Part shown: positions 1 through 39,046 of the stretch, piece by piece
Layout: every line of letters starts with the position of its first letter
Numbering within the stretch: the first letter of the stretch is position 1
Program-made: the position numbers and the translations under genes
The notes under the pieces: generated by a model
The model's input: the letters and a program-made list of their open reading frames with translations, nothing else
Databases searched by the model: none
Told to the model about the DNA's origin: nothing
Source: Bacteroidota bacterium
GTDB taxonomy: Bacteria > Bacteroidota > Bacteroidia > Chitinophagales > CAIODY01
Assembly: GCA_041192505.1 (NCBI GenBank)
Contig: JBEEMV010000082.1
Location: 1 to 44,034, forward strand
Direction: 5' to 3'
Length of the DNA stretch: 44,034 nt

Positions 1-3000
1 TGATGCTGTGCATGGATTATCATTGGCAGGTGTTGTACATATTTTTTTACCCAATTGTAATACCACAGTATCCATTGCATTCAAATTAGTAAATTTAGCA
101 TTAGCCGTATTCACGTTCGAAATTGTTGCTACATTCCACGATGCATATAAACCACTATAATATTCGCCAGTTAAAATTGATGTAGTTACAGAGGCATCAA
201 AATCTGAATTTACATAATATACTTGTGCTGTATAATTAGCCGCCACAAACGAGTTGATAGGTTTTATTTGCCAATAACGATTAATTGTTTTTAATGGATC
301 AAAACAAGAAGTATTTATTTTTGAATAATCATTTATAATTGATGAAACAACTATATCACCAGCAGTAGTAACGGCATTAGATGAAATTTTTACAGGTGCA
401 TAAGCAGTTGCATCGCCTACCGGAAAATCAACATTTACTAAAGTACCAACGGGTATAGTACGACGCAACGAACCATGAATATAATTAGTAGCATTATGAC
501 CACTAATATTTCCACTTGTACCAATAATTTTATTTCCTGCAATAATTTTTCCAGAGATAAAATTAATGAAGCCTGTAACCTGAAGGTTATCTGCAAGCGT
601 TAATCCTGCGGCATTATTTACCACCAATGAGTTGATTGTTGTAGGCAATGCATCACCAGTATTTTGAGCTACTGAACTATAATAAATGTAATTTGCTGAT
701 GTACTAAAATTTCTTACACAAGTTTGAATATTGCCTAATGATGTAGATTTGGTAATACCATCGGCTGATGAAATTTTTAATGTAGCACCATTTTGTAAAT
801 CGAATACCGATTTAAAATTTCCTGAAGATGCAATCGTATAACTACCACAATCTAAAGTTGAATTTGCGGCAACAGTAAGCGTTCCAAATAAATTTATATT
901 GCCCAATAATGTTACAGTTGCGCCGCTGTTAATAGTAATGTTACCGTATGTTCCACCCGATAAAGTTTGATTTGAATTGATAACCAAATCTGCATATGGC
1001 GTTAATGATAAACCTCTGAAAATTGTATTGGTAGGTGCTGTTGCTACAATTACACCAACAGTAGTAATGGCAGAACCTGATGAACTAATATTTGAACTAT
1101 ATGCTGCTGCATCAACAAATTTATGAATTTTATTTCCAGCTGCTGTACCTACGGTAACATACAACTCAATACCAGTACACGATTCAAAACCTGCGATGCC
1201 TGTACAACCACCTGTTGCAGTTATTGAACCTCTGCTTGTCCAAGTAGTTCCATTATACGAATATTTTAATAATCCATTAGTTTGATCAGCAATATAAACT
1301 AAATCAACACCAGCAATATTTGGGTCTTCGTCAAAAAATACTGAGCTATATACATTGCCCGACGGAACAGAAACTAAAGATGATAATGTTTGTGATGTAG
1401 TAGTTGGTAACCCTGTTCCAACTTTACTCAACGCTGTTGATGTAGATACAATTAATTGTCCGTTTACAATACTTGCAGCACGAACATTAGATGATGATAA
1501 TGCTACTCCATTTGAATTACTACCTACTGTGGTATAAATAATTCCGTTAGGACCAGTAGCCCAAATATCAGTACCATTGGTAGTTACAGCACCTCTAATA
1601 TTATTACCGCTAATGGCTGTAGGAATAATTGTTGAAGTATTTATTTCACCATAATTATCAACTATACCCACTACTCTACCTACTGTTGATGTTGCAACCG
1701 ACGTTGTACCTACTGTTGCATTATATCCTGCTAATGCCAAGTATTGATGATTTGGCGAAAAGCTTAATGCACCTTCTGAGCCTGCACTGCCACTATTTGT
1801 TAATGCATAATTTGTTCCTAATGTAGATGATGGCATTGGGCGACTTCTAACAATTGTGCCATTCGTTGAATATTCATCAATGGTAACTTGCGATGCACTG
1901 CTACTTAATGCAGTACCTGTTCCCAAGCGCAATACAGCCAAGTTGCCCGGTATAAATGGAATGCCTGTAATTCTAACATTTATTAATGAACGTGGGCTTT
2001 CGCAACCGTTGGTTGTTTCAGATACCCAATATTGTGAAGATGGATTTCCTGTTGCTGTTGTTGATGGCGTTGGTGCTGTTGAGCTTCCTATTCCACCTGT
2101 TGAAACTGTATACCAAGTTAAATTTGAACCTGTTGCTGTTAATGTTGATGCCGAAGTACCTTGTGTGTAAACCACTGGTGTAGTTACTGCTGGTGCAGTT
2201 GGCACACTATATACATTTACATTTATTTGTGCTAAAGGGCTTTCACAACCATTTACAGTTTGCGATACATAATAAGAAACTGCTGGTGCGCCAATTATTA
2301 AAGCAGATGGTGTTGGTGCTGTTGCACTTCCCGTTCCACCCGTTGAAACTGTGTACCATTGTATATTTGAACCCGTTGCACTTAAAGCTGATGGTGTAGA
2401 ATTTTGGCAAAGATTAATAGGTGTTGATGATGATGGTACAGATGGATAACCATACACATTTACATCAATTTGTTTGCGATTACTTTCGCAACCTGTAGTA
2501 GTATTTGTTTGTGAAACAAAATACGAAACCGCAGGAATGCCTGTGGTAGCTGTGTTTGGTGTTGGTGCTGTTGCACTTCCTATTCCTCCTATTGATGAAG
2601 TGTACCATAATAAATTAGTACCAGTGGCTGAAAGTACTGATGCTACTACATTTTGACAATAGTTAATCGGCGATGTTGATGTTGGAATAGTTGGTAATGC
2701 ATTTACAACTACTGCTAATAATGCTCGTGGACTTTCGCAGCCATTTACCGTTTGACTTACATAATTATTGATAGTAGTTGCTGAAGAAGTAACTGGTGTT
2801 GGTGCAGTTGCATTGCTTGTTCCATTTGTTGAAACCGTGTACCAAAGCAAGTTTGAACCCGTTGCTGTTAATTGTGTAGCTGCATCATTCAAACAATAAG
2901 TTACTGGTGTAGTTACAATTGGTGTTGTTGGTATAGAATAAACATTCACATCAATTTGTGCTGCCGGACTTTCAGGGCAACCGCCAATTGTTTGTGTTAC

Positions 3001-6000
3001 CCAATACGAAATTGTTGGTGTTCCTATTGAAGTGGTTGATGGTGTTGGAGCAGTTGAACTACCACCTGTGCCTGTGGTTGAAGTAGTGTACCATAATAAA
3101 TTTACACCTGTTGCTGTTAATTGTGATGCTGTAACTCCTTGACAAAATCCTACTGGTGTTGTTACACTTGGTGCTGTTGGTGCTGCAATTACAGTTACAT
3201 CTAATTGTGCACGTTGGCTTTCGCAAGTACCATTATTTTGGGTAACCCAATAACTTGTAGTGCCTGCTGATATTGCAGTTGGTGTAGGTGCTGTAGAGCT
3301 ACCTGTTCCATTTACTGCCACTGTATACCACATCAAACTTGTGCCTATTGCTGTTAATTGTGATGTAGTTGCATTCTGACAATAGTTTACATTTGAAACC
3401 GTTGGTGAATTAGGTGATGCATTAATATTTACCACAATTTCACTTCTATTACTTGTACAACCACTTGCTGTTTGTGTTACAAAATAACTTCCGATTGGTG
3501 TTCCTGCTGTAGCAGTTGAAGGCGTTGGTGCAGTTGATGAACTTGAAGTTGAATTAATAGCGGTATACCATAATTTGTTTGTTCCTGTTGCTGTTAATGC
3601 AGCAATTGTGTTATATTGACAATAAGTTGCTGGCGATGAAACCGTTGGTGCTGCTGCATTTCCTTCGCCAATTTGTAAATCGAAAGTGGAAGTGGTATTA
3701 ATTCCTGTTATCGAAATTGATGAAGTGGTAAAATTTGTTGTAGCTAATGCATAACTCCACGAGCTGCCAAACATAGCAGCAATAACGTTTGCAGCCGTTA
3801 TGCTTCCATCCACATCTGATGATTGATAATTTACAGTTGCATTATAAATAGCTGGCAACGGAGCTGATGGAAAACTGATAGACCAATATCTATTCACACT
3901 TTTTGAAGCAGTAATACATGATGATGAAAGGTTTGCTCTATCGCCCGAAGTGCTTGCTACTTGTATTGTTCCAGCTGTTGTAACCGATGGGAAATTTAAA
4001 GTAATAGAAGAATATTTTGCATTGCTGCCTACTTCAAAAGTTATATTTACGTTCGTTCCTGTTGCAATTATTTTTTGTAAATTTCCATTCACAAAGCTTG
4101 TAGTGCTTGCTCCGCTTACACTTCCGCCGCTTGCAATTGTCATTACATTTGATGAACCTGTAGTTAAAACACCCGAAGTTAAATTTAATGTAGTAGCTGA
4201 AGTGCTTGCTGTAAGCGTAACACCAGCCGAATTACTAATTGTTAAAGTAGTAATTGTTGATGGCAAACCATCGCCTGTAACTTGTGCCGATGAACCATTA
4301 TAAATATAAATAGCCGATGAAGAATAATTTCTTACACAAGTTTGCACACTACCTGTTGCACTCGAAGCTGTGATACCTGCTGTGTTTGCAGTTTTTAATG
4401 TAGCACCGTTTTGCAAATCGAAAGTGCTTTTACCAATACCATTGCTCAATATTTTAAATGTGCTGCAATCAATTGTACCACCATTTTGAATGGTAATATT
4501 ATCAGCATAAATATCGCCAGTTAATGTAAGTGTACCACCCGAAACTGTAATGTTGTTATAGATTCCAGAAGCGTTGGTATTGCCTGATGCTACTGTTAAA
4601 TTGCCTTGTGTAGGCGCCCACGAAATACCTTTAAATGAACTTGTAGCAGATGAAGTAGCAACTAAAGTTCCTACTGTTGTAATATCCAAACCGCTGCTTG
4701 TAATATTTGCATTGTAAGCCGCAGCATCTACAAATTTGTATACTTTATTTGCTACTGATCCATTACCCCAAACGCAGTATAGTTCAATTTGATCATTACA
4801 ATTTATTTTACCAATTAAACTACCAATACCAGCAGCAGGAGCAGTTCCGGCAGCTACCACAGAACCTCTGGCTGTCCAAGTAGTACCATTGTAAGAATAT
4901 TTAGTGATGCCCGAAGTTAAATCAGCAATGTATAATAAATCGTTTCCTGATACAGTTGCATCTCTATCAAAGAAAATAAAATCATATCCATTTGTACCAG
5001 CAGTTGGCAAGCCCGAAGGCGTAGTAATTGTTTGACCTGAAGTTATTGGTAATCCAGTACCAACTGTTGAAGGAGCAAAAACACCTGAACCAGCATTTAC
5101 CCATAATTGATTTGCTACAATATTGATAGCTCTGCAATTAGTAGATGTTGTTGAAAGTTGAGTACCAGCAGCTACGTTAGCAGTGGTGCCACCTGGAGCC
5201 GAAAATGGAATTACTCTAACGCCACCACCTGTACCTGCACCTACACCCCAAATATAATTTCCATCAGTAATACCACCTCTAAAATTATTACCACTAAATC
5301 CATTTGATGTATTAAATCCTGATCTTGTATCAATAGTTCCTACTGCATCTAAAATTCCTACTACACGAGTTACCGTTGTAGATGCACTGCTTGAAACACC
5401 AGAAGTATTTACAGCTGCATCATAACCACCACAAATTAAATATTTTGTATCGGGCGATAAAGTAATATGCCCATCAGATGTTGAAGAACCTGACAAAACT
5501 AATCTTAAATTATTACCACTCACAGTAGTTGGCAATGAACGATTAGATACTAATGATGTACCACTAGTTGAGTATTCATCCATATAATATTTAGCACCAT
5601 TTGAAGCTGTTGTTAAACCACTTTGATCGCATCTTCCTACCACAATACTTCCAGCTGTAAATGCTGTAAAACCACTAGTTGGCAATGCTGTTACATCAGT
5701 TGTTCCTGTACTCCAAGTAGTACCATTTCTTGTAAATATTTTAAACGAATATGTTGTTCCGTTTGTTAATCCTATAATAGTTTGTGGCGATGTAGTTCCT
5801 TTATAAACCACATATCCATTTCCTAATGATGTACCCAATGTATAAGCAAGATTTGCTGTATAACTATTTCCTATTGGTACGCCATTGTTAGTTGCAGGTG
5901 CAACTACTATCATCACTTCATCATAACATCCTGTTGGGTTGCTCCATGATACTGAAGCCGAAGCTGACAAGGGAGTTGTTGAAACCGATGAAGCATTGTT

Positions 6001-8385
6001 AACAGTAATAGCAGTAATGGTTTGAGCACCACCTGCTGTAAACGAACCCGATGGCGTTGCACTAACAAATGAAAAATCAGACAGTGTACTTGCATTTACA
6101 TTTATAGTAGCATTTGGTGTTGCTGCGCAAATTAAATCAGTAGTTACAAATAAATAATTTGTACCAATTGCAAAGGTTTGATTTAAACTTCCAAAAGTTT
6201 GAGCGCCTGTACCCAATGCGCTGGTTAATGTTCCTAATAATGTGGCAGTATTCGAATTAAAAGTTGATGATGATTGATACCATAATTTTAAATTCGCTAA
6301 ATCAGAAGCCGAATAAGTTCCTGCTAATGTGAAAGATGCTGAACTTAATGTAGCAGCTACTGTAGATACTGTTACATTAGTTCTATACAAAATATTATTA
6401 GTTGTATTTTGGTTGATAGGTGCAGCAGCAATACTTCCATTAGATAAAACAATTATAGGTACTAATGCTGGCGTTGAAAAAGTTGATGATGCTATCCAAC
6501 TACTTTGATTTGAACTACAATTTGAACGAACATATAAAGTATAGGTAGTACTTGCATTTAATGTAGATATAGAAACAGAAGTTAATGAAGTATTTCCGCT
6601 TGCATCTAATCCTGTTGAGCCCGAACCAGCGGCGCCACTACTTCTTACTTCATAATCATAACCACTTGCAGGAGCTGATGATGCAGCCGACCATGAAATA
6701 TTTGCTGCTGTGGCAGATGTTGCTGTGCCTGATGGAGATGAAGGAGCATTACATGTAGCAGCAATAATATCTGCAGTTAATCCTGTTGGTTGAGTTAATA
6801 AATAGCTTGAGCTATTTGTGCCACCTAAAGTTAAATTAGCTGATACCGATATTCCAGTTCCTACGGCTGCAGATGCAAATGTACCACCACCCGAAACAGT
6901 TAATGCATCACCATTTACAGCACCAACAACTGAAGCACCTGTAATGGTTGCAGTTGTATTTCCATCGTATGATTTATTTTGTGCTGCTGCACCTGTTGTT
7001 GAAACTGATAAAGTTGAAACCGTACTTGAAATAGTTGCCACATTTACCGAAGTTGCTCCTGAACTTGATAAAACTATATTACCCGAATATGGCGACCCTG
7101 CTACTGTTGATGTTGCTTTTAATCTTACATAAACTGTAGTTGATGAAATAGTGCCCGATGAACCTACTGTAACAGTTGAAGTATAAGTACCACCAATAGT
7201 TAAACAAACTTCATAGCCTGTAGGTGGTGTTACTAAAATTCCTGCTGTCATGTTTACACCCGATACCGAAAAACTTGTTGGAGATGATGATGCAGTACCA
7301 TAAGTAGTATTTACTGCACTTAAAGTTCCAGTAGTTGAAATAGTTGGCGTAAGTGTAATGGGAGCAAATGCAATTCCTTTTACAGTAGTACCTGCTGCTG
7401 ATGTATATAATGTTATATTATTGGCAGTTGTGATATTTATGGTTGAATTATAACCAGCAGCATCTGTTAATCTAACAACACTATTTGCAGCCGTTGCACC
7501 TGTACCCGATGTTACATATAAATAAGATCCAGTTCCGTTCCATTTTGCAATCATTCCAAAACCACCAATTGTGGTTGTGTAACTTCCGTTGCTTACCCAC
7601 GAACCACTTACCAATGAGTATTTATAAATAATTCCTGCTGTAGCTGATGTACCTATAACCATATACAATATATCATAAGTAGTTCCATTCGAACCTGATG
7701 AAACCATATAAAAATCTAAAGGCGCTGTAATAGTTGGCGATGTACCAATGCTACCAGGCAATGCAGTAAATGCAGTTGCTGTAGCAGATGAATAAGTTCC
7801 AACAGGATTTGTAGCGGCTGATGTTAAAGCATATACAGTCCCACCAAATGATTTCAATGCTCTTAAATTTGTTGAAACACTTGCTGTTGTTCCACTATTA
7901 GTATACAATCCACCTTGGTCGCCTATGTAAAATGTAGAATTATTGGTAGTTGTTGCACTTCTAGTTTGGTTGCCCGATGCACCCGTATAAGTTGTTGCCA
8001 AATTGAAAGTACCAGCACCATTGTAAGTACCAATTCCTCTTGTAGTAATAGTATTAATATTCGCACTTGTACCATTGGTTTGACCTCCAGTAAAAGTTAA
8101 CAAACTACCATCGTTGCTATTCGACAAATAGGCAGTTGAAGTTGCACTACCCGAAAATCGTAATGCAATTGCTGAAGTTGTTCCGTCAATCGAATGAGTA
8201 GTTAAAGCAGATTGTCCAGCTGAAGTAGTGTTTAGTTCAACAATACTTCCTGTGGTATTATTGCCCGATGAAGATGCAGCAACAAACACAGCTAAGTTAC
8301 CATTGGTAAACGATTGTGCTCGTACTATGCTTATTGAAAGCAATAGCATTAATACACTTGTTAAAATATAACGGGTTGATTTCAT
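1..8385 (-). CDS. Giant secreted cell-surface repeat protein, partial (at least 2795 codons; the 3' end lies beyond the left window edge)
   Basis: A minus-strand ATG at 8385-8383 opens MKSTRYILTSVLMLLLSISIVRAQ, which looks like a signal peptide. No stop codons were found where I hand-translated this frame (1-180, 2160-2400, 5641-5700). No competing long ORF exists in any frame across 1-8385, and the track lists no in-frame minus fragments. This fits one ORF lacking an in-window stop. Contents include a YDG-like segment (KSYDGNTTATITG, ~6770-7000), an FN3-like segment (CNAPSSPSG..ISWSA..YDYEVR, ~6480-6757), seven Ig-like repeats and three copies of a propeller-like module. Confidence 0.85.
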   Translation of the reverse strand, partial: MKSTRYILTSVLMLLLSISIVRAQSFTNGNLAVFVAASSSGNNTTGSIVELNTTSAGQSALTTHSIDGTTSAIALRFSGSATSTAYLSNSNDGSLLTFTGGQTNGTSANINTITTRGIGTYNGAGTFNLATTYTGASGNQTRSATTTNNSTFYIGDQGGLYTNSGTTASVSTNLRALKSFGGTVYALTSAATNPVGTYSSATATAFTALPGSIGTSPTITAPLDFYMVSSGSNGTTYDILYMVIGTSATAGIIYKYSLVSGSWVSNGSYTTTIGGFGMIAKWNGTGSYLYVTSGTGATAANSVVRLTDAAGYNSTINITTANNITLYTSAAGTTVKGIAFAPITLTPTISTTGTLSAVNTTYGTASSSPTSFSVSGVNMTAGILVTPPTGYEVCLTIGGTYTSTVTVGSSGTISSTTVYVRLKATSTVAGSPYSGNIVLSSSGATSVNVATISSTVSTLSVSTTGAAAQNKSYDGNTTATITGASVVGAVNGDALTVSGGGTFASAAVGTGISVSANLTLGGTNSSSYLLTQPTGLTADIIAATCNAPSSPSGTATSATAANISWSAASSAPASGYDYEVRSSGAAGSGSTGLDASGNTSLTSVSISTLNASTTYTLYVRSNCSSNQSSWIASSTFSTPALVPIIVLSNGSIAAAPINQNTTNNILYRTNVTVSTVAATLSSASFTLAGTYSASDLANLKLWYQSSSTFNSNTATLLGTLTSALGTGAQTFGSLNQTFAIGTNYLFVTTDLICAATPNATINVNASTLSDFSFVSATPSGSFTAGGAQTITAITVNNASSVSTTPLSASASVSWSNPTGCYDEVMIVVAPATNNGVPIGNSYTANLAYTLGTSLGNGYVVYKGTTSPQTIIGLTNGTTYSFKIFTRNGTTWSTGTTDVTALPTSGFTAFTAGSIVVGRCDQSGLTTASNGAKYYMDEYSTSGTSLVSNRSLPTTVSGNNLRLVLSGSSTSDGHITLSPDTKYLICGGYDAAVNTSGVSSSASTTVTRVVGILDAVGTIDTRSGFNTSNGFSGNNFRGGITDGNYIWGVGAGTGGGVRVIPFSAPGGTTANVAAGTQLSTTSTNCRAINIVANQLWVNAGSGVFAPSTVGTGLPITSGQTITTPSGLPTAGTNGYDFIFFDRDATVSGNDLLYIADLTSGITKYSYNGTTWTARGSVVAAGTAPAAGIGSLIGKINCNDQIELYCVWGNGSVANKVYKFVDAAAYNANITSSGLDITTVGTLVATSSATSSFKGISWAPTQGNLTVASGNTNASGIYNNITVSGGTLTLTGDIYADNITIQNGGTIDCSTFKILSNGIGKSTFDLQNGATLKTANTAGITASSATGSVQTCVRNYSSSAIYIYNGSSAQVTGDGLPSTITTLTISNSAGVTLTASTSATTLNLTSGVLTTGSSNVMTIASGGSVSGASTTSFVNGNLQKIIATGTNVNITFEVGSNAKYSSITLNFPSVTTAGTIQVASTSGDRANLSSSCITASKSVNRYWSISFPSAPLPAIYNATVNYQSSDVDGSITAANVIAAMFGSSWSYALATTNFTTSSISITGINTTSTFDLQIGEGNAAAPTVSSPATYCQYNTIAALTATGTNKLWYTAINSTSSSSTAPTPSTATAGTPIGSYFVTQTASGCTSNRSEIVVNINASPNSPTVSNVNYCQNATTSQLTAIGTSLMWYTVAVNGTGSSTAPTPTAISAGTTSYWVTQNNGTCESQRAQLDVTVIAAPTAPSVTTPVGFCQGVTASQLTATGVNLLWYTTSTTGTGGSSTAPTPSTTSIGTPTISYWVTQTIGGCPESPAAQIDVNVYSIPTTPIVTTPVTYCLNDAATQLTATGSNLLWYTVSTNGTSNATAPTPVTSSATTINNYVSQTVNGCESPRALLAVVVNALPTIPTSTSPINYCQNVVASVLSATGTNLLWYTSSIGGIGSATAPTPNTATTGIPAVSYFVSQTNTTTGCESNRKQIDVNVYGYPSVPSSSTPINLCQNSTPSALSATGSNIQWYTVSTGGTGSATAPTPSALIIGAPAVSYYVSQTVNGCESPLAQINVNVYSVPTAPAVTTPVVYTQGTSASTLTATGSNLTWYTVSTGGIGSSTAPTPSTTATGNPSSQYWVSETTNGCESPRSLINVRITGIPFIPGNLAVLRLGTGTALSSSASQVTIDEYSTNGTIVRSRPMPSSTLGTNYALTNSGSAGSEGALSFSPNHQYLALAGYNATVGTTSVATSTVGRVVGIVDNYGEINTSTIIPTAISGNNIRGAVTTNGTDIWATGPNGIIYTTVGSNSNGVALSSSNVRAASIVNGQLIVSTSTALSKVGTGLPTTTSQTLSSLVSVPSGNVYSSVFFDEDPNIAGVDLVYIADQTNGLLKYSYNGTTWTSRGSITATGGCTGIAGFESCTGIELYVTVGTAAGNKIHKFVDAAAYSSNISSSGSAITTVGVIVATAPTNTIFRGLSLTPYADLVINSNQTLSGGTYGNITINSGATVTLLGNINLFGTLTVAANSTLDCGSYTIASSGNFKSVFDLQNGATLKISSADGITKSTSLGNIQTCVRNFSTSANYIYYSSVAQNTGDALPTTINSLVVNNAAGLTLADNLQVTGFINFISGKIIAGNKIIGTSGNISGHNATNYIHGSLRRTIPVGTLVNVDFPVGDATAYAPVKISSNAVTTAGDIVVSSIINDYSKINTSCFDPLKTINRYWQIKPINSFVAANYTAQVYYVNSDFDASVTTSILTGEYYSGLYASWNVATISNVNTANAKFTNLNAMDTVVLQLGKKICTTPANDNPCTAS
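1962..3650 (-). repeat. Seven tandem ~80-aa (~240-nt) Ig-like coding repeats inside the giant ORF
   Basis: Hand translation gives a recurring pattern: P..P....P..YCQ......L.ATG.NL.WYT....G.GS.TAPTP......G....Y.VSQT..GCES.R..I.V.V. One example is SALSATGSNIQWYTVSTGGTGSATAPTPSALIIGAPAVSYYVSQTVNGCESPLAQINVNVYSVP at ~2170-2400. The pattern resembles the CHU_C-associated Ig-like domain family of Bacteroidota adhesins. Confidence 0.8.
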
Positions 8386-8590
8386 GATAATTGAACTTAA
8401 GTTAATTTTTGTGATGCAAAACTCAATCAACTACATGAACCTATTCTTACCAACCCATGAAGCATTTGTAAATAAAACATTCCCTAAATGTTTCCTTTTT
8501 TTAACCAATTCTGCATTTTGTTAACTTTAAAGAAACCATTAAATAATTTTTGATTAACGCAAAAAAAAACGGGTACACCTACCCTGAAAA

Positions 8591-17692: not shown

Positions 17693-18577
17693 TTACGCTC
17701 TTGGATGAGCCTGCTTAAATGCTTTCTTTAATTTTTCAATAGTGTTGTGTGTATAAATTTGTGTGGCTGCAAGGCTCGAATGCCCCAATAATTCTTTAAT
17801 AGCATTCAAATTTGCACCTTCATTACTTAAATGTGTAGCAAATGAATGGCGTAATACATGCGGACTTTTTTTATCAATAGTAGTTACCAATTTTAAGTAT
17901 TTTTTTACTGTAGTATAAATAAAACCATCGTAAGTTTTTTTACCATTATTGAGCACCATTAAATAATTGTGTAATGTCGATTCTTGCAGTAAATTTCGTT
18001 GGATTAAATAAGTTTCAATCATGGGGTTTAATTGTGGATTTAACGGAATAATCCGTTCTTTATTGCCCTTGCCCAATACTTTTATTTGATGTTGAGCTAA
18101 GTTTACATTAGAGATTGTTAAATTGATTAATTCGCTGCGTCGCAAACCACAATTATATAATAATTCAAAAATCAGCTTATCTCTTAAGCCCGAAAAATCA
18201 TCTGTAAAATTTACTTTATCTAATAAATCTTCCATTCCTTTTTCTTCAACTACATAGGGCAACCGTTTTCCTATTTTGGGCGGAATTACTTTTTGCATCG
18301 GGTTTTTACCAATCGCTTCTTCTTTCAGTAAAAATTTAAAAAAGGTTTTTAGTGTAGATATTTTTCGGTTGATGGATTTGGCAATTATTTTATCATTCAT
18401 TAATTCAACCAACCACGACCGAATATGTTGATGATTAATTTGAGCCAAAGGAAGCTCACCAAATGTGGTTTCTACAAAAAGAAAAAACTGCTTAAGGTCA
18501 TTGCCATAAGCAGTTATAGTATGTTTCGAAAATCTCTTTTCGTATTGTAAGTATTCTAAAAAACGTTCCGTAATCAT
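17693..18577 (-). CDS. xerC: Tyrosine site-specific recombinase, XerC/XerD-like
   Basis: The N-terminal SAM-like domain reads FLEYLQYEKRFSKHTITAYGNDLKQF. The catalytic region contains GLRRSEL, HVLRHSFATHL and LGHSSLAATQIYTH. Confidence 0.85.
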   Translation of the reverse strand: MITERFLEYLQYEKRFSKHTITAYGNDLKQFFLFVETTFGELPLAQINHQHIRSWLVELMNDKIIAKSINRKISTLKTFFKFLLKEEAIGKNPMQKVIPPKIGKRLPYVVEEKGMEDLLDKVNFTDDFSGLRDKLIFELLYNCGLRRSELINLTISNVNLAQHQIKVLGKGNKERIIPLNPQLNPMIETYLIQRNLLQESTLHNYLMVLNNGKKTYDGFIYTTVKKYLKLVTTIDKKSPHVLRHSFATHLSNEGANLNAIKELLGHSSLAATQIYTHNTIEKLKKAFKQAHPRA

Positions 18578-19890: not shown

Positions 19891-19922
19891 AAAAGCCTGC
19901 TATCGGTATAGCAGGCTTTTTT
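19891..19922 (+). terminator. Rho-independent terminator
   Basis: The sequence is AAAAGCCTGCTA-tcgg-TAGCAGGCTTTTTT, a perfect 12-bp stem followed by a T-run. Confidence 0.8.
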
Positions 19923-20069
19923 ATTTTAAAATAAATATTTCTCCTTTTTTGGTTTTTTAATATAAATACCTTTAGTTTTACAAATAGGTTTAATAATATT
20001 TATAACAGTTTTTTAAACAACCAATTTTATCATGAAAAAACGAAATTTTCTTTATTTATTCATGGTTCT

Positions 20070-20081
20070 GGGGGGGGGGGG
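20070..20081 (+). repeat. Homopolymeric G12 tract between the signal-peptide start codon and the body of the following ORF
   Basis: Counted directly: ...catggttctG GGGGGGGGGG Gtactc... gives 12 G. It is the only G/C homopolymer longer than 5 nt that I noticed in the window. Confidence 0.95.
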
Positions 20082-20125
20082 TACTCACACTTACCAGCAG
20101 CCAAGAAACAGGCAACGAAACACAA

Positions 20126-22501
20126 ATGCGCTTTGAACAAGAGCCGCCCATACCCCAAGCCTACTATGTGCAGAAACTGCCGCAGCCAACAACCGAAGGA
20201 CAAAATATTATTTTTAGTGTTACCTATTTAGCCGAACCCAATTTGCCCGAAAAATTATACCTTAACCCAATAGGCAACCAAAATTTAATTTTGCACGATG
20301 ATGGCAAATACCCCGATTTGGTAGCTGGTGATTTAAAATACAGTACTTTAATGACAGAAGATATACAAACATTTAAAGACCAAATACACCGCTTAGAAGA
20401 TAAAATAGATGCCGATGGCGGTGTAATAAGCTTTACTGGACATGATGGACACTTTACAAAAGCAGGTGAGTTGGCTCATTTTGATTTTGTGAAATTTGAA
20501 GATAATGAAGAAACGCAAGTGGCTGCAAGACTTATTGATGCAACGCAATGCATAGATGAAATCAAAAAAGAAAAATCATTATTTATTACTGATATCAGTG
20601 TGGTAGAAGATCCTGCAAGAACTTACAATTTCAAAACAGGTTTTGGGAATAAACAAGGAGCTTGGACTTTTGGGCATTTATTGGGCAACATTATTAATAA
20701 CCCCAATAATGTAAATTCATTTATTGATAATTGGGTAGAAATGTTTCTTACAACTCAAACTCAATCTCAAACTGGCGATCAAGCATATATGAGAGAAGGT
20801 GTAGAACATTTTTTAATGATTCCATGGATGCAACTATGTTATAGCGACCCTAATTGGATTGTTGCACCCAATGTATCACCTACAAAGATTGATTATGATA
20901 TAATGTTAAACTTATCTGGTTCAGATTGGCATTATTATGTTAGCCAAGTTCCTCAAAATATTTTACTCGAAAATGCACCATTTAAGTTAACCACTATTGT
21001 TAACAGAATGGATTTAAGAGGTAACGAAGCTTTTTCATATGGAGGCTTTCACATGGCTAATGCTGGTGAAACAAGATTTATCTTCACTTTAATAAATACA
21101 GATTTTACAACTTATAGAAATAATAGTCAGTCTCCTCAACTTGATTTACCTACTCATGTAAATGCAGTACCTGGAAGTAGCACAATTCCTTTTGATTGGA
21201 AAGGGCTTAATGTAATCTTCGAATATTCAAATCCTCAACCAAACCTAGAAATGCTTCAAGATTTTGCAGCGGAATGGGTTGATTTATCAAGCTCCTTAGT
21301 CCCTCCATTTGGAACAAATAGTTTACCAAATGCACCCAATTTTAATGATTATTTACAACATATTACTGATCAAGTTATAAAACCGAATGCCATGCCCAAT
21401 AAGCCTAATGGCAGTGCAATAAATAGAATAAGAACCAATGAGAAAATATTTGATAAACTAAATAGTCAAATCGGATTTTTAACTGGCTCTCAGTGGGAAG
21501 ATATGAAATGGCAATTCAGGCAATTCGAATTAAATAACAATGGAATGTTTGAAATGGCACCAGTAACTAATGTACCTTATTTTGGTGTAAATGATGCCGA
21601 ACATAGCCCTAACGAGGCAACTGGTATATTATCAAATCATTTTAATCAAACTCGTAGTCAAACTTTCATAAATTGGGCTTCACAAAATACTACAAGGATT
21701 GAAAGTGGTAATTTTTTGATTCCTAAAAATTTAACAGCACTAACAGGAGATAATTATAGTGAATTAATTAATTATTTTGTGTTTGATAGAGCATACTATA
21801 CTACTGATTATAGCCCGATAATAAATAATGCTAAATTAGTTCGTCATGAAATTTCTTTGAATACTTGCCAAGGTTGTCATGGGGGAGAAACAAAGACCTT
21901 ATTTACTATGGTTGCTCCAATGGTTTATGGTCAAGCTGCCAACTATTGGTCAAATAATCCAATACTAAATGCTTCATATGTTGATGATATTATTGACGAA
22001 AGATTTTATCCCGATCCCAATAATTCAGGAATTGCTCAAAATACTGGAAAAACTTTTGAACATTATTTGTTAAGTACTGGTTCTGCTCAAAGTGAGAATT
22101 ATCAGATAAAGCATTTTTCAAAAATTATTCAAACTGTTTCTCCATTTTTAACAGGTCGAAGATACTCTGGACAAAACACATCTAGTGCAACATGGGACGA
22201 TGATGAAAATGACCCATTACATCCAGATAATGACGTACAAACTTTTCCTAAGCTTCCAGATAATTTAATGTCGGGGTTATTTTGGGTTAACGACCCAGAT
22301 AATCAAAGCCCTATTGGAGCTACAAATAATGCTATTGGAGGTTCGCCATATAACCATAATACAAAATATGGCTATAATGATTTAGAAATGAGAAAAAAGG
22401 ATATTTGTAGTTTCCTTACCAATGAAAATGCTAGTTCGAGTAATATAATGAGAATGGTAAATCGTATTAAGAAAATTCCTTTGCCATTAGGCTCTCATTA
22501 A
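20126..22501 (+). CDS. Protein of unknown family (791 aa as listed). The probable true product starts at ATG 20032 with a signal peptide and needs a -1/+2 change in the G12 tract
   Basis: The ORF is open upstream to a TGA at 20033 and has no signal peptide from ATG 20126. ATG 20032 encodes MKKRNFLYLFMVLGGGG, but in a different frame. Internal motifs are NRMDLRGN..AGETRFIFTL, NRIRTNEKIF..WQFRQFELN and NTCQGCHGGETKTLFTMV. There is no T9SS CTD. Confidence 0.75.
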   Translation: MRFEQEPPIPQAYYVQKLPQPTTEGQNIIFSVTYLAEPNLPEKLYLNPIGNQNLILHDDGKYPDLVAGDLKYSTLMTEDIQTFKDQIHRLEDKIDADGGVISFTGHDGHFTKAGELAHFDFVKFEDNEETQVAARLIDATQCIDEIKKEKSLFITDISVVEDPARTYNFKTGFGNKQGAWTFGHLLGNIINNPNNVNSFIDNWVEMFLTTQTQSQTGDQAYMREGVEHFLMIPWMQLCYSDPNWIVAPNVSPTKIDYDIMLNLSGSDWHYYVSQVPQNILLENAPFKLTTIVNRMDLRGNEAFSYGGFHMANAGETRFIFTLINTDFTTYRNNSQSPQLDLPTHVNAVPGSSTIPFDWKGLNVIFEYSNPQPNLEMLQDFAAEWVDLSSSLVPPFGTNSLPNAPNFNDYLQHITDQVIKPNAMPNKPNGSAINRIRTNEKIFDKLNSQIGFLTGSQWEDMKWQFRQFELNNNGMFEMAPVTNVPYFGVNDAEHSPNEATGILSNHFNQTRSQTFINWASQNTTRIESGNFLIPKNLTALTGDNYSELINYFVFDRAYYTTDYSPIINNAKLVRHEISLNTCQGCHGGETKTLFTMVAPMVYGQAANYWSNNPILNASYVDDIIDERFYPDPNNSGIAQNTGKTFEHYLLSTGSAQSENYQIKHFSKIIQTVSPFLTGRRYSGQNTSSATWDDDENDPLHPDNDVQTFPKLPDNLMSGLFWVNDPDNQSPIGATNNAIGGSPYNHNTKYGYNDLEMRKKDICSFLTNENASSSNIMRMVNRIKKIPLPLGSH

Positions 22502-22507
22502 TTTACT

Positions 22508-24283
22508 ATGAAAATAACATTTTTTGTTTTTTTTCTTACTGTAACTTTTACATTAAGAGCACAAAACTATCATGCTAAAAACATTATCATGAGTAGTAAA
22601 TGTGATTATTATAATGTTGCTTCAATAACTACCGATAGCTATAACAACACCTATATTGGAGGTTTTTTTAATGGGACTTATTCATTGGGGGGATATACTT
22701 TGAAAAGTAACACTCAAAGCTCTTTAAATAATACTCTATTTATAGCTAAGATTGATAGTTCTGATGTTGTACAGTGGATAAAAATAATTACTGAGATTCA
22801 ATCCCCATATTATCAACGTGTAAAAATTCAATGTGATAAAAAGAATAACCTTTTACTTGCATTTAATTTTGCAGACAGTATGAATATATTAGGTCATAAT
22901 ATTATTAGTATTGGCAGTTCAGATGCTTTATTATTAAAGCTTGATTCATTGGGGGATTATTTATGGCATTTTACAATTAATGGGCTTTATGGAGAAAGTA
23001 TAGGGCTAGATGAAATTGGTATAATGCCAAATAATGATATTGTAATTTCTGGAGGATTTGGAGGTTATTCTGGCAGCCCAAATCCTATTGCAACGACTGA
23101 TTTTGGAGGTACTATATTAACTACAAAAGGAGCAGATGGGTATTTGGCTAGATACACTGAAACAAGTTCATTGATTTGGGTCAGAAGAGGAGGGACAAAT
23201 AACTTAATTGACGGTTATGCTGGTTCATTAATTGACATAAACCAGAATTTATATTCCTTAATTAGTTTAGACCCTAGCTATAATATTTATTTTGATTCAG
23301 CTTATCACTATACTTTTCCACAACAAGGATACACTGCTTCTGCAATTGTCAAATACAATAGTGTAGGCACATTGAAATGGGTAAAAGGAATCTACACCCC
23401 AAACTTCCCCGACATTGCAGGATTTGAAGGAATGTGTATTCTGAAAAATCTACAAGTTGTAGTTTTCGGAAGTTATAATAGCCTAAATTCTGTATTACTG
23501 GAAGGTCATTCCTCTTTTCCACCCAATATTACAGGAACAGGAGGCACAAATGAATATCTTAGTTTTTTAGTATGCTATGATTCATTAGGCAATGTATTAT
23601 GGGCTAAAAATCCACATAAATTAATCAGTTCAACCGAACAGCCTATTGGAGTGGTGGGTAGCAAAACTAATTCTGATTTTTATTTTGTTTCTTATTTCGA
23701 TGGTTCATCTATTATTTCGGGTACTGATACTGTATATGGTACAGGTTATCAAAATGTATTAATTGAATGTATGGATAGTATGGGTAATAAAAAATGGCAT
23801 AAAATCATTAAAGGTTTTCCTGGTGCTAATGCTCGTGATATTGCTATTAATGATAATAATGAAATTATTATTGTAGGCAATACATCAAGCAGCACACTAC
23901 AATGCGATGCTAAAAAAGTAAACATAAGCAGCACACCAGCCATGTATATTTTAAAGCTTGCCCCCGGCAATGTAAACTGGAATGATACTTTAAATGGTTT
24001 TGAAGATGTGGTGGTAAGTAAAGAGCAGTTGGTGGTTTATCCGAATCCAGCACAGCAGTCAATAGTCATCAGTCATCAGTCATTAGTAAATACAATAGTG
24101 GTAACGGATGTGTTGGGTAGAGTGTGCTCTATTCCCCCTTTTGAAAGGTTGCAAATCCCGAAGGAATCGGGAGGGTTAGGGGGATTTGAATTAAATATTT
24201 CAACTCTTTCAAAGGGTATTTATTTCATCAAAGCAACCGACGTAAACGGCAATCAACTAAATGGAAAATTTGTAAAACAATAA
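22508..24283 (+). CDS. Secreted beta-propeller (SBBP-like repeat) protein with a T9SS type-A CTD
   Basis: The signal peptide is MKITFFVFFLTVTFTLRAQ. Six blade-like motifs are present (DALLLKLDSLGDYLWH, DGYLARYTETSSLIWV, SAIVKYNSVGTLKWV, LSFLVCYDSLGNVLWA, NVLIECMDSMGNKKWH, LFIAKIDSSDVVQWI). The C-terminus is VVYPNPAQQ...GIYFIKATDVNGNQLNGKFVKQ. The start lies 6 nt after the upstream stop. Confidence 0.8.
   Translation: MKITFFVFFLTVTFTLRAQNYHAKNIIMSSKCDYYNVASITTDSYNNTYIGGFFNGTYSLGGYTLKSNTQSSLNNTLFIAKIDSSDVVQWIKIITEIQSPYYQRVKIQCDKKNNLLLAFNFADSMNILGHNIISIGSSDALLLKLDSLGDYLWHFTINGLYGESIGLDEIGIMPNNDIVISGGFGGYSGSPNPIATTDFGGTILTTKGADGYLARYTETSSLIWVRRGGTNNLIDGYAGSLIDINQNLYSLISLDPSYNIYFDSAYHYTFPQQGYTASAIVKYNSVGTLKWVKGIYTPNFPDIAGFEGMCILKNLQVVVFGSYNSLNSVLLEGHSSFPPNITGTGGTNEYLSFLVCYDSLGNVLWAKNPHKLISSTEQPIGVVGSKTNSDFYFVSYFDGSSIISGTDTVYGTGYQNVLIECMDSMGNKKWHKIIKGFPGANARDIAINDNNEIIIVGNTSSSTLQCDAKKVNISSTPAMYILKLAPGNVNWNDTLNGFEDVVVSKEQLVVYPNPAQQSIVISHQSLVNTIVVTDVLGRVCSIPPFERLQIPKESGGLGGFELNISTLSKGIYFIKATDVNGNQLNGKFVKQ
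24134..24183 (+). repeat. 50-nt GC-rich hairpin-containing element embedded in frame in the CTD (copy A)
   Basis: The sequence is CCCCCTTTTGAAAGGTTGCAAATCCCGAAGGAATCGGGAGGGTTAGGGGG, which is 28/50 G+C. An internal hairpin pairs TCCCGA with TCGGGA (24156-24172). It is 49/50 identical to the reverse complement of 37377-37426. Confidence 0.9.
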
Positions 24284-24363: not shown

Positions 24364-25248
24364 ATGCAAAAATATATTTTAACAGCAGCGTTTATAGTGG
24401 CTTCATTTGGTTTGGCTAATAGCCAAAATGTATCAACAGCAAATAAATTTGATATAAAACTACACCCCGAAAAGCCCGAATTAACTACACAAAACAAATT
24501 TTCGGCAGCTTGTTTTCAAATAGCCGATGTGGTATATACCGTTATAGAAAATGCAAAACCAAATACCGTATTAGAATTTTATAGCACCATTCATGGTGGT
24601 AAATTAGTAGCCAATTGTACTACCGATAAATTGGGTTTTGCTCAAAAAGTATTTTCGGCTAAAGCAGTGCCTGGCTTTGCTATCAACAAACCTTCTGCCG
24701 ATAGCAGAGAAGGATTTGTAGAGCATTTTATCGAAAAAGAATTTGTGTTAGAAAAATTTGAAGCACAGCGCAATGGCAATACTATTTCATTAAATTGGAA
24801 TGCCAATTCATCAGCCAAAAACACTATTACTTTTGAAATTTTAAAAAGTACGGATGGTAAAAATTATTCGGTAATTAATACCCAACAAGCTAATTCATCA
24901 GAGGGATTGAGTACTTATACTTTTACTGAAAATTTCAATGAATCAAGTAGTTATAAATTACGAATTATAAAAAACAATTCTATAGCTCGTTATACATCCG
25001 AGCCTTTAAATGCCGATGCTAATAAATCGTTTAAAGTTTATCCAACGGTTTCAAGCACCAATATTCATATTGATGCATCTGATAATACAATTGAACCAAC
25101 GCCATTTTACATCATAAATGTTTCAGGCGAAATATTAAAAAATGGACTATTGGATAAAGCACAAAATGAAGTAGCTATAAACGAATTTGTGGCAGGAATT
25201 TATTTTGTTCAAATTGGAACTAAAACACAAAAATTTATAAAGGAATAG
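24364..25248 (+). CDS. Secreted protein with an FN3-like middle domain and a T9SS type-A CTD
   Basis: The signal peptide is MQKYILTAAFIVASFGLANSQ. The middle segment is FEAQRNGNTISLNWNANSS..ITFEILKSTDGKNYSVI. The C-terminus is FKVYPTVSSTNIHI...INEFVAGIYFVQIGTKTQKFIKE. Confidence 0.75.
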   Translation: MQKYILTAAFIVASFGLANSQNVSTANKFDIKLHPEKPELTTQNKFSAACFQIADVVYTVIENAKPNTVLEFYSTIHGGKLVANCTTDKLGFAQKVFSAKAVPGFAINKPSADSREGFVEHFIEKEFVLEKFEAQRNGNTISLNWNANSSAKNTITFEILKSTDGKNYSVINTQQANSSEGLSTYTFTENFNESSSYKLRIIKNNSIARYTSEPLNADANKSFKVYPTVSSTNIHIDASDNTIEPTPFYIINVSGEILKNGLLDKAQNEVAINEFVAGIYFVQIGTKTQKFIKE

Positions 25249-25276: not shown

Positions 25277-25308
25277 AAAGCCTTTAGAAACATCTAAAGG
25301 CTTTTTAT
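25277..25308 (+). terminator. Rho-independent terminator between convergent genes
   Basis: The sequence is AAAGCCTTTAGA-aaca-TCTAAAGGCTTTTTATTTT, a perfect 12-bp stem. Confidence 0.75.
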
Positions 25309-37276: not shown

Positions 37277-39046
37277 TCAGTTTTTAATAAACTTCTTTCT
37301 ATATGTTTTGCCAGCTATATCGGTAAGTTGTAAAAAATAAATTCCGTTTGAAAGAGTTGAAATATTTAATTCTAATCCCCCTAACCCTCCCGATTCCTTC
37401 GGGATTTGCAACCTTTGAAAAGGGGGAACAGGGCACACTATTCCTAAAATGTTGGTTATTTCAATTGTGTTTTCTAATAACTTATAACCAGTAACTATTA
37501 ATTTATCTCCACACGGATTTGGATAAATAGATATTTCATTTTTTTCAGTTTCAACTATTCCTAATGAAATTGTATCACGAATAAATTCGCCCTGATTTTC
37601 ATCGGCACCAATATCAACCTTACCATTAAAAATACGGCTTTGATTTTCGAAATCAGTTTCGTTTGCTATTATTGTAAATGCAGCATTACCAGCATCTACA
37701 GCCTTACTTGTATTGAATAAATGAAAATCATTTTTATTTTCATCTACAAATAATGGGTCAACAAAAATGCTGTTTGCATCCTGATTGCTTACCATTTTAT
37801 AATAACCAAATCCTGTAGTATAATTTCCATCCCAATTAAAAATAATAGATGCTGGGTTTAAAAATGAGGAACAAAATAAATTGTAATCCATCACATTGTT
37901 TTGCCAACCAGCGCCATAAAACCACGAGTAGCCAATCATGTTTTGATTGTTGGCATAAAAAATATTATGAGTGATAGAGCTACTATCAAATGGAAATAAA
38001 ACAATTTCGCCAGCACTGGTTTTCAAACTATTATTTTGGTACAAAGTATTGTGATGAAGATTAGCATATCTAATTCGAGCAGTAGAATTTGTGTAATTAT
38101 AAATGCCGATGGAAATGCCTTGCAAATAATTTTTGTAAATTAAATTTTCTCGAATAGTAATATAATCTGTTCGTGCATAATTTGAATAACCCGAAATATT
38201 AATTCCAAAATCGCAATTATAAATTCTGTTTTTTTCAATCATGCAATTTCTTGCACCACTAATTACAATGCCCTGCTGATAATTGCCAGGTGTTTTATTA
38301 TACACATCATGAATTATATTATTGCTGATATAAATATTTCGAGCGTAATCATATATCCATTTTTTTGATGTGCTATCGCTGCCCACTAATGCAATGCCCG
38401 AGTTTGCAATATGATGAATGGTATTGTTTGTAATGCTGCAATCATGCACATTTCCAGCTATTCCAATAGCTTGTGTCATGCTGAAAATTGAGTTTCCGAA
38501 ATTGCAATTTGTAATCGTAATATCATGCACACCATTGGCTGTTGTATCATTGCCATACAATGCAATACCTGTTGAATGTTTATTAATTAAATGATTAAAC
38601 GTGCAATTTTTAAATTCGATATTGGATGAAATACTACCCACAATAATGGCTGGCTGCCAGTTGTAAGCCGATGATGAATCGGAAATTGCAAAATGAATAC
38701 CTTGAATTTTAAAATAAGATGGACCGTAAAAAGTTAAAACACCCCAACCATTTATGCCACCGCCATCAATAATTACAGAATCATTTTGATGATTTTTTAT
38801 AGTGATAAAATTATTGGGTAAACCTGTAACAAGCGGAATTATTTTTTCATTATAAGTGCCTGCTAAAATTTCGATTGTGCTACCAGCAGCCACAGTAGTT
38901 GCCGCTTTCTTTACCGTTTTCCAAGCTGATGTAATGGATGTTCCGTTATTCGAATCATTGCCCGAAGTGCTTACGTAGTAAGTAGTTTGAGCAAAAATGT
39001 TTGTTGCAAAAATCAGTAAAATAAAAACAGTTAAAATATATCTCAT
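37277..39046 (-). CDS. Right-handed parallel beta-helix repeat protein with a T9SS type-A CTD
   Basis: The signal peptide is MRYILTVFILLIFATNIFAQ. Repeated N.I..N/I.IS.N turns are present (ITNCNFGN, ITNNTIHH, ISNNIIHD, IEKNRIYN, IRENLIYKN). The C-terminus is ISIYPNPCGDKL...GIYFLQLTDIAGKTYRKKFIKN. Confidence 0.8.
   Translation of the reverse strand: MRYILTVFILLIFATNIFAQTTYYVSTSGNDSNNGTSITSAWKTVKKAATTVAAGSTIEILAGTYNEKIIPLVTGLPNNFITIKNHQNDSVIIDGGGINGWGVLTFYGPSYFKIQGIHFAISDSSSAYNWQPAIIVGSISSNIEFKNCTFNHLINKHSTGIALYGNDTTANGVHDITITNCNFGNSIFSMTQAIGIAGNVHDCSITNNTIHHIANSGIALVGSDSTSKKWIYDYARNIYISNNIIHDVYNKTPGNYQQGIVISGARNCMIEKNRIYNCDFGINISGYSNYARTDYITIRENLIYKNYLQGISIGIYNYTNSTARIRYANLHHNTLYQNNSLKTSAGEIVLFPFDSSSITHNIFYANNQNMIGYSWFYGAGWQNNVMDYNLFCSSFLNPASIIFNWDGNYTTGFGYYKMVSNQDANSIFVDPLFVDENKNDFHLFNTSKAVDAGNAAFTIIANETDFENQSRIFNGKVDIGADENQGEFIRDTISLGIVETEKNEISIYPNPCGDKLIVTGYKLLENTIEITNILGIVCPVPPFQRLQIPKESGGLGGLELNISTLSNGIYFLQLTDIAGKTYRKKFIKN
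37377..37426 (-). repeat. 50-nt GC-rich hairpin-containing element embedded in frame in the CTD (copy B)
   Basis: The reverse complement reads CCCCCTTTTCAAAGGTTGCAAATCCCGAAGGAATCGGGAGGGTTAGGGGG. It differs from copy A at one base (G to C, giving E to Q). Confidence 0.9.

Follow-up and report, generated by a model that had tools for sequence, protein, structure and literature searches.

A run of twelve guanines (G12) interrupts the signal-peptide coding region in front of a 791-aa open reading frame (ORF) on contig JBEEMV010000082.1 (assembly GCA_041192505.1) of a Bacteroidota bacterium of the Chitinophagales (CAIODY01), positions 1 to 44,034 of which form the 44-kb window analysed here. Slipped-strand phase variation is the best explanation for this tract and, in our judgement, a probable one; the G12 most likely switches the 791-aa gene and perhaps also the surface-protein operon to which it belongs. 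Such a switch had been proposed in an earlier note on this DNA, and it is now supported by the conservation of the tract in relatives, by tract lengths ranging from 8 to 14 and by the occurrence of both in-frame (ON) and out-of-frame (OFF) alleles.

The layout described in the earlier note is present in the sequence. The signal-peptide start ATG 20032 opens MKKRNFLYLFMVLGGGGTHTYQQPRNRQRNTNAL, and its frame is ended after 34 codons by TGA 20134-20136; the frame begins with MKKRNFLYLFMVLGGGG... and passes, 38 nt past the ATG, into the twelve G at 20070-20081. The 791-aa ORF lies in the +1 frame relative to ATG 20032, is open upstream to TGA 20033 and has, as had been stated, no signal peptide of its own. 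An alternative in-frame start that would provide one was considered and rejected, as ATG, GTG and TTG are all absent between TGA 20033 and ATG 20126. The predicted fusion of the two frames by 11 or 14 G was reproduced in silico: the loss of one G or the gain of two gives a single precursor MKKRNFLYLFMVLGGG(G)VLTLTSSQETGNETQMRFEQEPP... of 822/823 aa, with the basic n-region, hydrophobic core (h-region) and small-residue c-region of a signal peptide, whereas 12 G give a 34-aa peptide. The window has a GC content of 33%, and G12 is its only G/C run of at least seven, in agreement with the impression that it is the sole long one, the runner-up being one G6; the number of G12/C12 runs expected by chance from base composition is 4e-5. 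GGG is the rarest glycine codon, making up 7.3% of the Gly codons in the ORFs of the window. The locus has two of the features by which contingency loci are recognized, namely a repeat of hypermutable length inside an ORF and a change of length that determines whether the full-length product or a truncated one is made.

The fused protein retrieved 234 homologues, all of them unnamed. Most have their own signal peptide followed by the conserved FEQxPPIP sequence, and a subset lacks the signal peptide, starts just past GGG, carries an odd N-terminal extension into 'GGGV' or has GGG in the signal peptide; these odd N-termini are explained by the tracts found in the fetched DNA. Exact-protein look-ups are blind to the ON alleles of OFF queries, and therefore DNA-level scans of GTDB species genomes and Joint Genome Institute (JGI) metagenomes, which are independent of gene calling, and look-ups of neighbouring genes were added; the scans enlarged the locus set, and further protein look-ups contributed two more. 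We obtained 15 distinct poly-G loci, with the tract beginning 33-39 nt past the ATG and 53-63 nt ahead of FEQ, where it codes GGG in the hydrophobic core about 12 codons after the ATG at the same position in all 15.

The closest orthologue (P0002, 61% amino-acid identity) has an ATG, 12 codons, poly-G and the remaining signal peptide in another frame. Its tract is G9 in two assemblies and G12 in two others, and the alignment of a G9 contig (L001) with a G12 contig (L004) over 3678 bp contains no mismatch and a single gap, which is the tract. The earlier note had called for a comparison of tract length at the orthologous locus and had named, as an outcome speaking against a switch, orthologues devoid of a tract whose start corresponds to ATG 20126; the opposite was seen, i.e., the same ATG-signal-peptide-poly-G layout with variable length. 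At the P0020 locus the tract is G11 in four samples and G14 in one. Over the 15 loci (17 locus-length observations) a length of 8 was found twice, 9 four times, 10 twice, 11 twice, 12 six times and 14 once. Four loci are in frame and 11 are out, a ratio consistent with an in-frame share of one third (P=0.40), and the OFF loci cover both wrong frames, five with one base too many and six with two. Both ON and OFF alleles therefore exist in nature, counted across the clade. The length polymorphism among near-identical contigs occurs in relatives (G9/G12, G11/G14 and, at a C run considered below, C5/C10), and the species of the window showed G12 only.

The distribution of the tract suggests that the repeat is kept by selection and not by amino-acid need or base composition, because the rare codon GGG is retained in 15 loci, runs are concentrated at this site and a sister lineage spells the same residues differently. 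In the comparison of run density, which covered 77 related loci and 401 kb, 13 G/C runs of at least eight were located in 6.1 kb (the 100-nt segments upstream of FEQ) against 4 in the remaining 395 kb, so that they are about 200-fold denser at this site. The survey included only two cultured hosts, Chitinophagaceae bacterium MMS25-I14 (L019) and Rurimicrobium arvi JCM 31921 (L044), and both lack a tract of at least seven. A neighbour-joining tree of the mature proteins places every poly-G locus inside one deep clade, whose members share 35-61% identity with the window protein (35-40% apart from the 61% orthologue). The sister lineage within this clade has the same signal peptide (..MLIMGGVISTL..) with Gly-Gly written as GGA GGA and fixed in frame.

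The codons on both sides of the tract were compared between the window and the 61% orthologue. Of the 13 codons that precede the tract, taken in the ATG frame, six are identical, four synonymous and three conservative; among the nine codons after it, read in the frame of the long ORF, five are identical, two synonymous and two non-synonymous, whereas the same post-tract codons read in the ATG frame give no synonymous and five non-synonymous changes. Each half of the signal peptide is thus under purifying selection in its own frame, even though both species are OFF at present, and this requires that the halves be fused with a frequency sufficient for selection. Apart from L015, every OFF locus retains an intact 2.4-kb ORF. 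At L015 (2939-3000; G9, OFF) an extra stop lies between the tract and FEQ, and at L094 (about 1400-1495) the tract is replaced by GTGTTGTGG and a TAA is found inside the signal peptide; both loci look decayed.

Identical DNA in other samples was located via exact protein look-ups of both flanking genes. The G12 call is reproducible, since the independent sample L181 (Logan assembly, SRR35181459), with 100% identity over 1796 bp, likewise has G12, and a one-off assembly error behind it is unlikely. The sequence is present in the JGI samples 3300042989, 3300047555 and 3300079163 and in SRR35181459. The contig L178 (JGI 3300047555) begins at window position 20082, the first base after the tract, and a break at this point is expected from a heterogeneous or hard-to-read tract. 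Three contigs carrying genes of the family in one metagenome-assembled genome (MAG), L018, L021 and L035, begin 28-52 nt before FEQ, approximately at the poly-G site of other loci, and the contig L028 starts with C15 and thus also ends exactly at a tract. This suggests that assemblies often break at these homopolymer runs.

Several points weigh against a switch at this locus. The species of the window yielded G12 alone, in two assemblies plus the one contig broken at the tract, and in every assembly of the two closest species the gene is OFF. An ON allele of the window species was found neither in a collection of 15 billion proteins, where exact-protein look-ups recover only alleles with the same called product, nor via the look-ups of flanking genes. 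The lengths 9 and 12 are over-represented, with 10 of the 17 observations being multiples of three (binomial P=0.03), which simple slippage does not predict; this excess is independent of which length is in frame (window 20070-20081; L001-L026, L095, L118, L174, L175). All tract lengths are consensus calls from metagenome assemblies, in which runs of 9-14 G are somewhat uncertain, and two of the poly-G loci (L015 and L017) come from one MAG that may be a long-read assembly. Moreover, full-text literature searches returned no report of phase variation by homopolymers or other simple sequence repeats (SSRs) for Bacteroidota, so no precedent in the phylum can be relied on.

These points have to be weighed against what other explanations would require. 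If the tract were essentially fixed out of frame, a low constitutive level of the full-length protein could arise from RNA-polymerase slippage or from ribosomal frameshifting on GGG GGG. This would fit the 11 of 15 loci that are out of frame, the recurrence of the lengths 9 and 12, and the TAA that directly follows the tract in the ATG frame of L005, L006, L015, L017 and L174, where a -1 slip restores the frame. Runs of this length could also slip in transcription, a phenomenon familiar in bacteria from A/T runs only. The shift needed, however, differs among loci (one base too many in five OFF loci, two in six), four loci are simply in frame, and the length differs between near-identical contigs. 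The window itself would need a +1 or -2 shift with neither a stop nor a known hungry codon after the run, and the RNA downstream of the tract has no unusual structure (z = -0.19). Programmed recoding is recognized by a conserved frame relation and slippery or stimulatory elements among orthologues, and this combination was not found here. We therefore consider recoding an improbable explanation, and slippage may leave OFF alleles leaky without being the main control.

A decaying gene, with the frameshift fixed at a mutational hotspot and the tract being a liability, is in our view slightly less probable still. It would account for the window species and its closest relative being OFF in all of their seven assemblies, for the additional stop downstream of the tract in L015 and for the eroded L094. 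Decay is hard to reconcile with 2.4-kb ORFs that stay intact in DNA of 33% GC among species only 35-61% identical, with orphaned signal-peptide codons that show synonymous or conservative changes in their own frame, with a tract retained against codon bias in 15 loci and with the existence of ON alleles. A sequencing or assembly error that conceals an ordinary secreted protein with a true length fixed in frame at 11 or 14 G, the trivial alternative named in the earlier note, is the least probable of the three and very unlikely altogether. Homopolymers are indeed error-prone, and one assembly breaks at the tract; yet the independent sample has G12 as well, the lengths in relatives differ by 3 nt (9 vs 12, 11 vs 14), unlike the typical error of ±1, and the error would need to strike 11 of 15 loci across projects and assemblers. 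Even if the call in the window were wrong, the conserved hypermutable tract would remain.

We hypothesize that the G12 is the switch element of a contingency locus, situated where the leading gene of a three-gene unit codes for its signal peptide. Slipped-strand mispairing during replication would add or drop G residues, presumably at high and reversible rates. At a length of 11 or 14 G (or likewise 8, 17 etc.), translation from ATG 20032 would read via three to four Gly in the hydrophobic core into the 791-aa ORF and the protein would be exported (ON), whereas at the present 12 G, and equally at 10 or 13, a short peptide would be made from ATG 20032 and the long ORF could be translated only without an export signal (OFF). 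Changes by 3 nt that keep the frame would merely add or remove a Gly and should be tolerated, because the tract codes for part of the h-region. The OFF state could also lower the expression of the two downstream genes by polarity, which is plausible because an OFF tract would leave 2.4 kb of untranslated mRNA ahead of them. The benefit might be variation of surface structures, e.g., for the evasion of phages or grazers.

Repeats of other kinds occur at the 5' end of genes in the same family. In its other main clade a proline linker follows the signal peptide, and several loci code this linker with a C run located 17-35 nt before FEQ. The run is C7 in L016 and C10 in L051 (= L129), both ON, C10 in L027 and L031 and C12 in L100, all three OFF, and the C15 of L028 stands at the contig end, where the state is not determinable. 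L182 (GAA + C5, ON) and L027 (C10, OFF) are 99.8% identical over 5.4 kb, and P0184, the third allele of their 90% cluster, has one more Pro and is ON. A few loci of the poly-G clade carry five copies of a heptamer, AAACAGC, or three of an octamer, AAGTACCC or ACAGCAAC, at or just past the start codon (about 150 nt upstream of FEQ in L039, L102 and L173; 1373-1396 in L097; 1-24 in L176). No variation of copy number was seen among these loci, and the frame logic is clear for L097 only, in which the frame opened by the ATG does not match that of the signal peptide and mature protein; the signal peptide of L173 also contains a TAA. The chances appear evenly balanced that the family harbours an old contingency system of environmental Bacteroidota, in which poly-G was kept in one clade down to about 35% identity and other lineages independently gained different 5' repeats.

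The 791-aa ORF corresponds to the NCBI entry 'MAG: hypothetical protein RL708_765 [Bacteroidota bacterium]', which lies on a contig of 62.5 kb. Neither this protein nor 24 of its relatives matched Pfam, its sole match in NCBIfam was a sub-threshold one of 21 residues to 'choice-of-anchor X', and a profile of 89 sequences detected no relatives in PDB. The AlphaFold model is confident (predicted local distance difference test, pLDDT, 86; predicted template modelling score, pTM, 0.92), and Foldseek found no match for it in PDB at E <=0.001; the N-terminal beta-sandwich of the model alone resembles immunoglobulin-like (Ig-like) domains. A CxxCH motif (C581, C584, H585) of the kind that binds haem in c-type cytochromes is invariant in the 89 sequences, and the ON form of the protein would be exported, as such cytochromes are; there was no Pfam, PDB-sequence or fold match. 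The motif may bind haem c or a metal, which would make the protein a candidate haem- or metal-binding exported protein. As to export by a type IX secretion system (T9SS), no C-terminal sorting domain was matched in the 791-aa protein by Pfam or NCBIfam. Remoter relatives with 25-27% identity occur in Verrucomicrobia (Roseibacillus) and in Myxococcota MAGs. Public gene calls are wrong at the N-terminus in P0001, P0002, P0010, P0020 and P0029, either by truncation at an internal Met or GTG with loss of the signal peptide or by wrong-frame upstream extension into the G run (P0010, 'RIGAHRGGGVIFTTLT'); gene callers thus systematically misplace the starts of these genes.

The gene is followed on the same strand by two genes for proteins with T9SS sorting domains (Table 1), and no terminator-like site was detected on the + strand from 22300, inside the 791-aa gene, to 25277. 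A Por_Secre_tail gene of 560-590 aa is the conserved partner in L001, L006-L013, L174 and L175, and a neighbour of this kind, differently arranged, occurs in L182. An invertible promoter of the Bacteroides type was considered and rejected, as flanking inverted repeats are absent and the sole inverted repeat of the intergenic region is the terminator hairpin at 19891-19920. A tyrosine recombinase gene (17693-18577, - strand) lies 1.5 kb upstream of the switch gene and adjoins the gene for ribosomal protein S21; its product is XerC/XerD-like (TIGR02224, 307 bits, just under the cut-off) and looks like a housekeeping enzyme; a role as invertase was considered, and inverted repeats around the promoter are absent. 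No known RNA families were found anywhere in the window. A stretch of 105 nt near the 3' end of the 591-aa T9SS gene (24121-24225, + strand) is 94% identical to the reverse complement of 37335-37439 (- strand), near the 3' end of a 589-aa ORF (37277-39046), and both stretches lie where the C-terminal sorting domain would be coded. At the start of the window (1-8430, - strand) an ORF of at least 2810 codons, belonging to a gene for a giant protein, runs off that edge.

Table 1. Features of the candidate switch locus and of the transcription unit that it is proposed to head (window coordinates)
Feature	Position	Strand	Remarks
Strong intrinsic terminator ending the 94-aa gene upstream; 5' limit of the transcription unit	19891..19920	+	13-bp perfect stem, then T-run
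AT-rich intergenic region; presumed site of the promoter and 5' untranslated region	19921..20031	+	between the terminator and ATG 20032
Start codon, n-region and first half of the signal-peptide h-region, MKKRNFLYLFMVL	20032..20069	+	ATG frame
34-codon ORF, product of the present G12 (OFF) allele	20032..20136	+	translation
G12 homopolymer, candidate hypermutable switch element	20070..20081	+	encodes the h-region Gly stretch; position shared by 15 loci, lengths 8-14
Remaining signal peptide and c-region, VLTLTSSQETGNETQ	20082..20125	+	long-ORF frame; joined to ATG 20032 only by 11 or 14 G
791-aa ORF as annotated	20126..22501	+	mature part of the predicted exported protein; conserved FEQxPPIP N-terminus; CxxCH at residues 581-585
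591-aa SBBP-like beta-propeller protein	22508..24283	+	6 nt past the 791-aa stop; own signal peptide, T9SS C-terminal sorting domain
294-aa protein	24364..25248	+	T9SS C-terminal sorting domain; 80 nt after the 591-aa gene
Terminator-like hairpin closing the three-gene unit	25277..25304	+	first such site from 22300 onward

Phase variation mediated by repeats is usually described for host-adapted pathogens, and a poly-G switch would extend contingency loci to free-living Bacteroidota. If the family does harbour the old contingency system considered above, the stochastic ON/OFF expression of the CxxCH protein, and of the T9SS proteins encoded behind it, would itself be the selected trait in free-living freshwater and soil bacteria, plausibly directed against phages or grazers. 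A poly-G switch in these bacteria would further demonstrate that mere comparison of public metagenome assemblies can bring such switches to light. The family is large and has neither a Pfam entry nor a PDB structure match, and its expression seems to be selected for variability, a strong indication of exposure to phages, predators or competitors. It is thus a good target for functional work.

Poly-G and poly-C contingency loci are known from SSR-mediated phase variation in Campylobacter jejuni, Helicobacter pylori, Neisseria and Haemophilus (PMC11868660). As in these bacteria, a G/C run of at least eight lies in the 5' coding region, a frameshift would set the ON or OFF state, the length differs between otherwise identical genomes, here those of relatives, and the functions concern the surface or secretion. 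In contrast to them, the hosts here are free-living Bacteroidota of river, lake, soil and sludge and not host-restricted pathogens, the tract keeps the same codon position throughout a deep clade within one protein family and is known from metagenome assemblies, and the regulated protein matches no known function or fold. The opa genes of Neisseria, which encode a multi-copy family of adhesins in a pathogen, carry CTCTT pentanucleotide repeats inside the signal-peptide coding region. The two systems share a repeat in the hydrophobic core of the signal peptide, where changes that keep the frame do no harm and those that break it eliminate the exported protein, and they differ in that the repeat is a homopolymer here and a pentanucleotide there.

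Homopolymer phase variation is also known from Mycobacterium tuberculosis, e.g., at the 7C tract of glpK (PMC10334774), where reversible frameshifts in short G/C homopolymers were likewise found by the comparison of many sequenced populations; those tracts are shorter than the one described here, lie inside enzyme genes instead of a signal peptide and belong to another phylum. Within the Bacteroidota, the invertible promoters of the Mpi/Tsr type in Bacteroides resemble our locus in the ON/OFF control of surface structures, whereas the promoter region here lacks flanking inverted repeats and the nearby recombinase is XerC/XerD-like. The earlier note had held that homopolymer switches are far less documented in T9SS-bearing Bacteroidota and that inversion is better known there, and the literature searches agree: a 2025 review of phase variation cites only inversions for Bacteroides (PMC11868660), and the sole mention found is speculation about a C4-5 run in a polysaccharide locus of Bacteroides fragilis. 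The mechanism as such is textbook knowledge in pathogens; what is unusual here is its proposed occurrence in free-living hosts, at one conserved codon position throughout a deep clade, and the apparent acquisition of different 5' repeats within one uncharacterised family.

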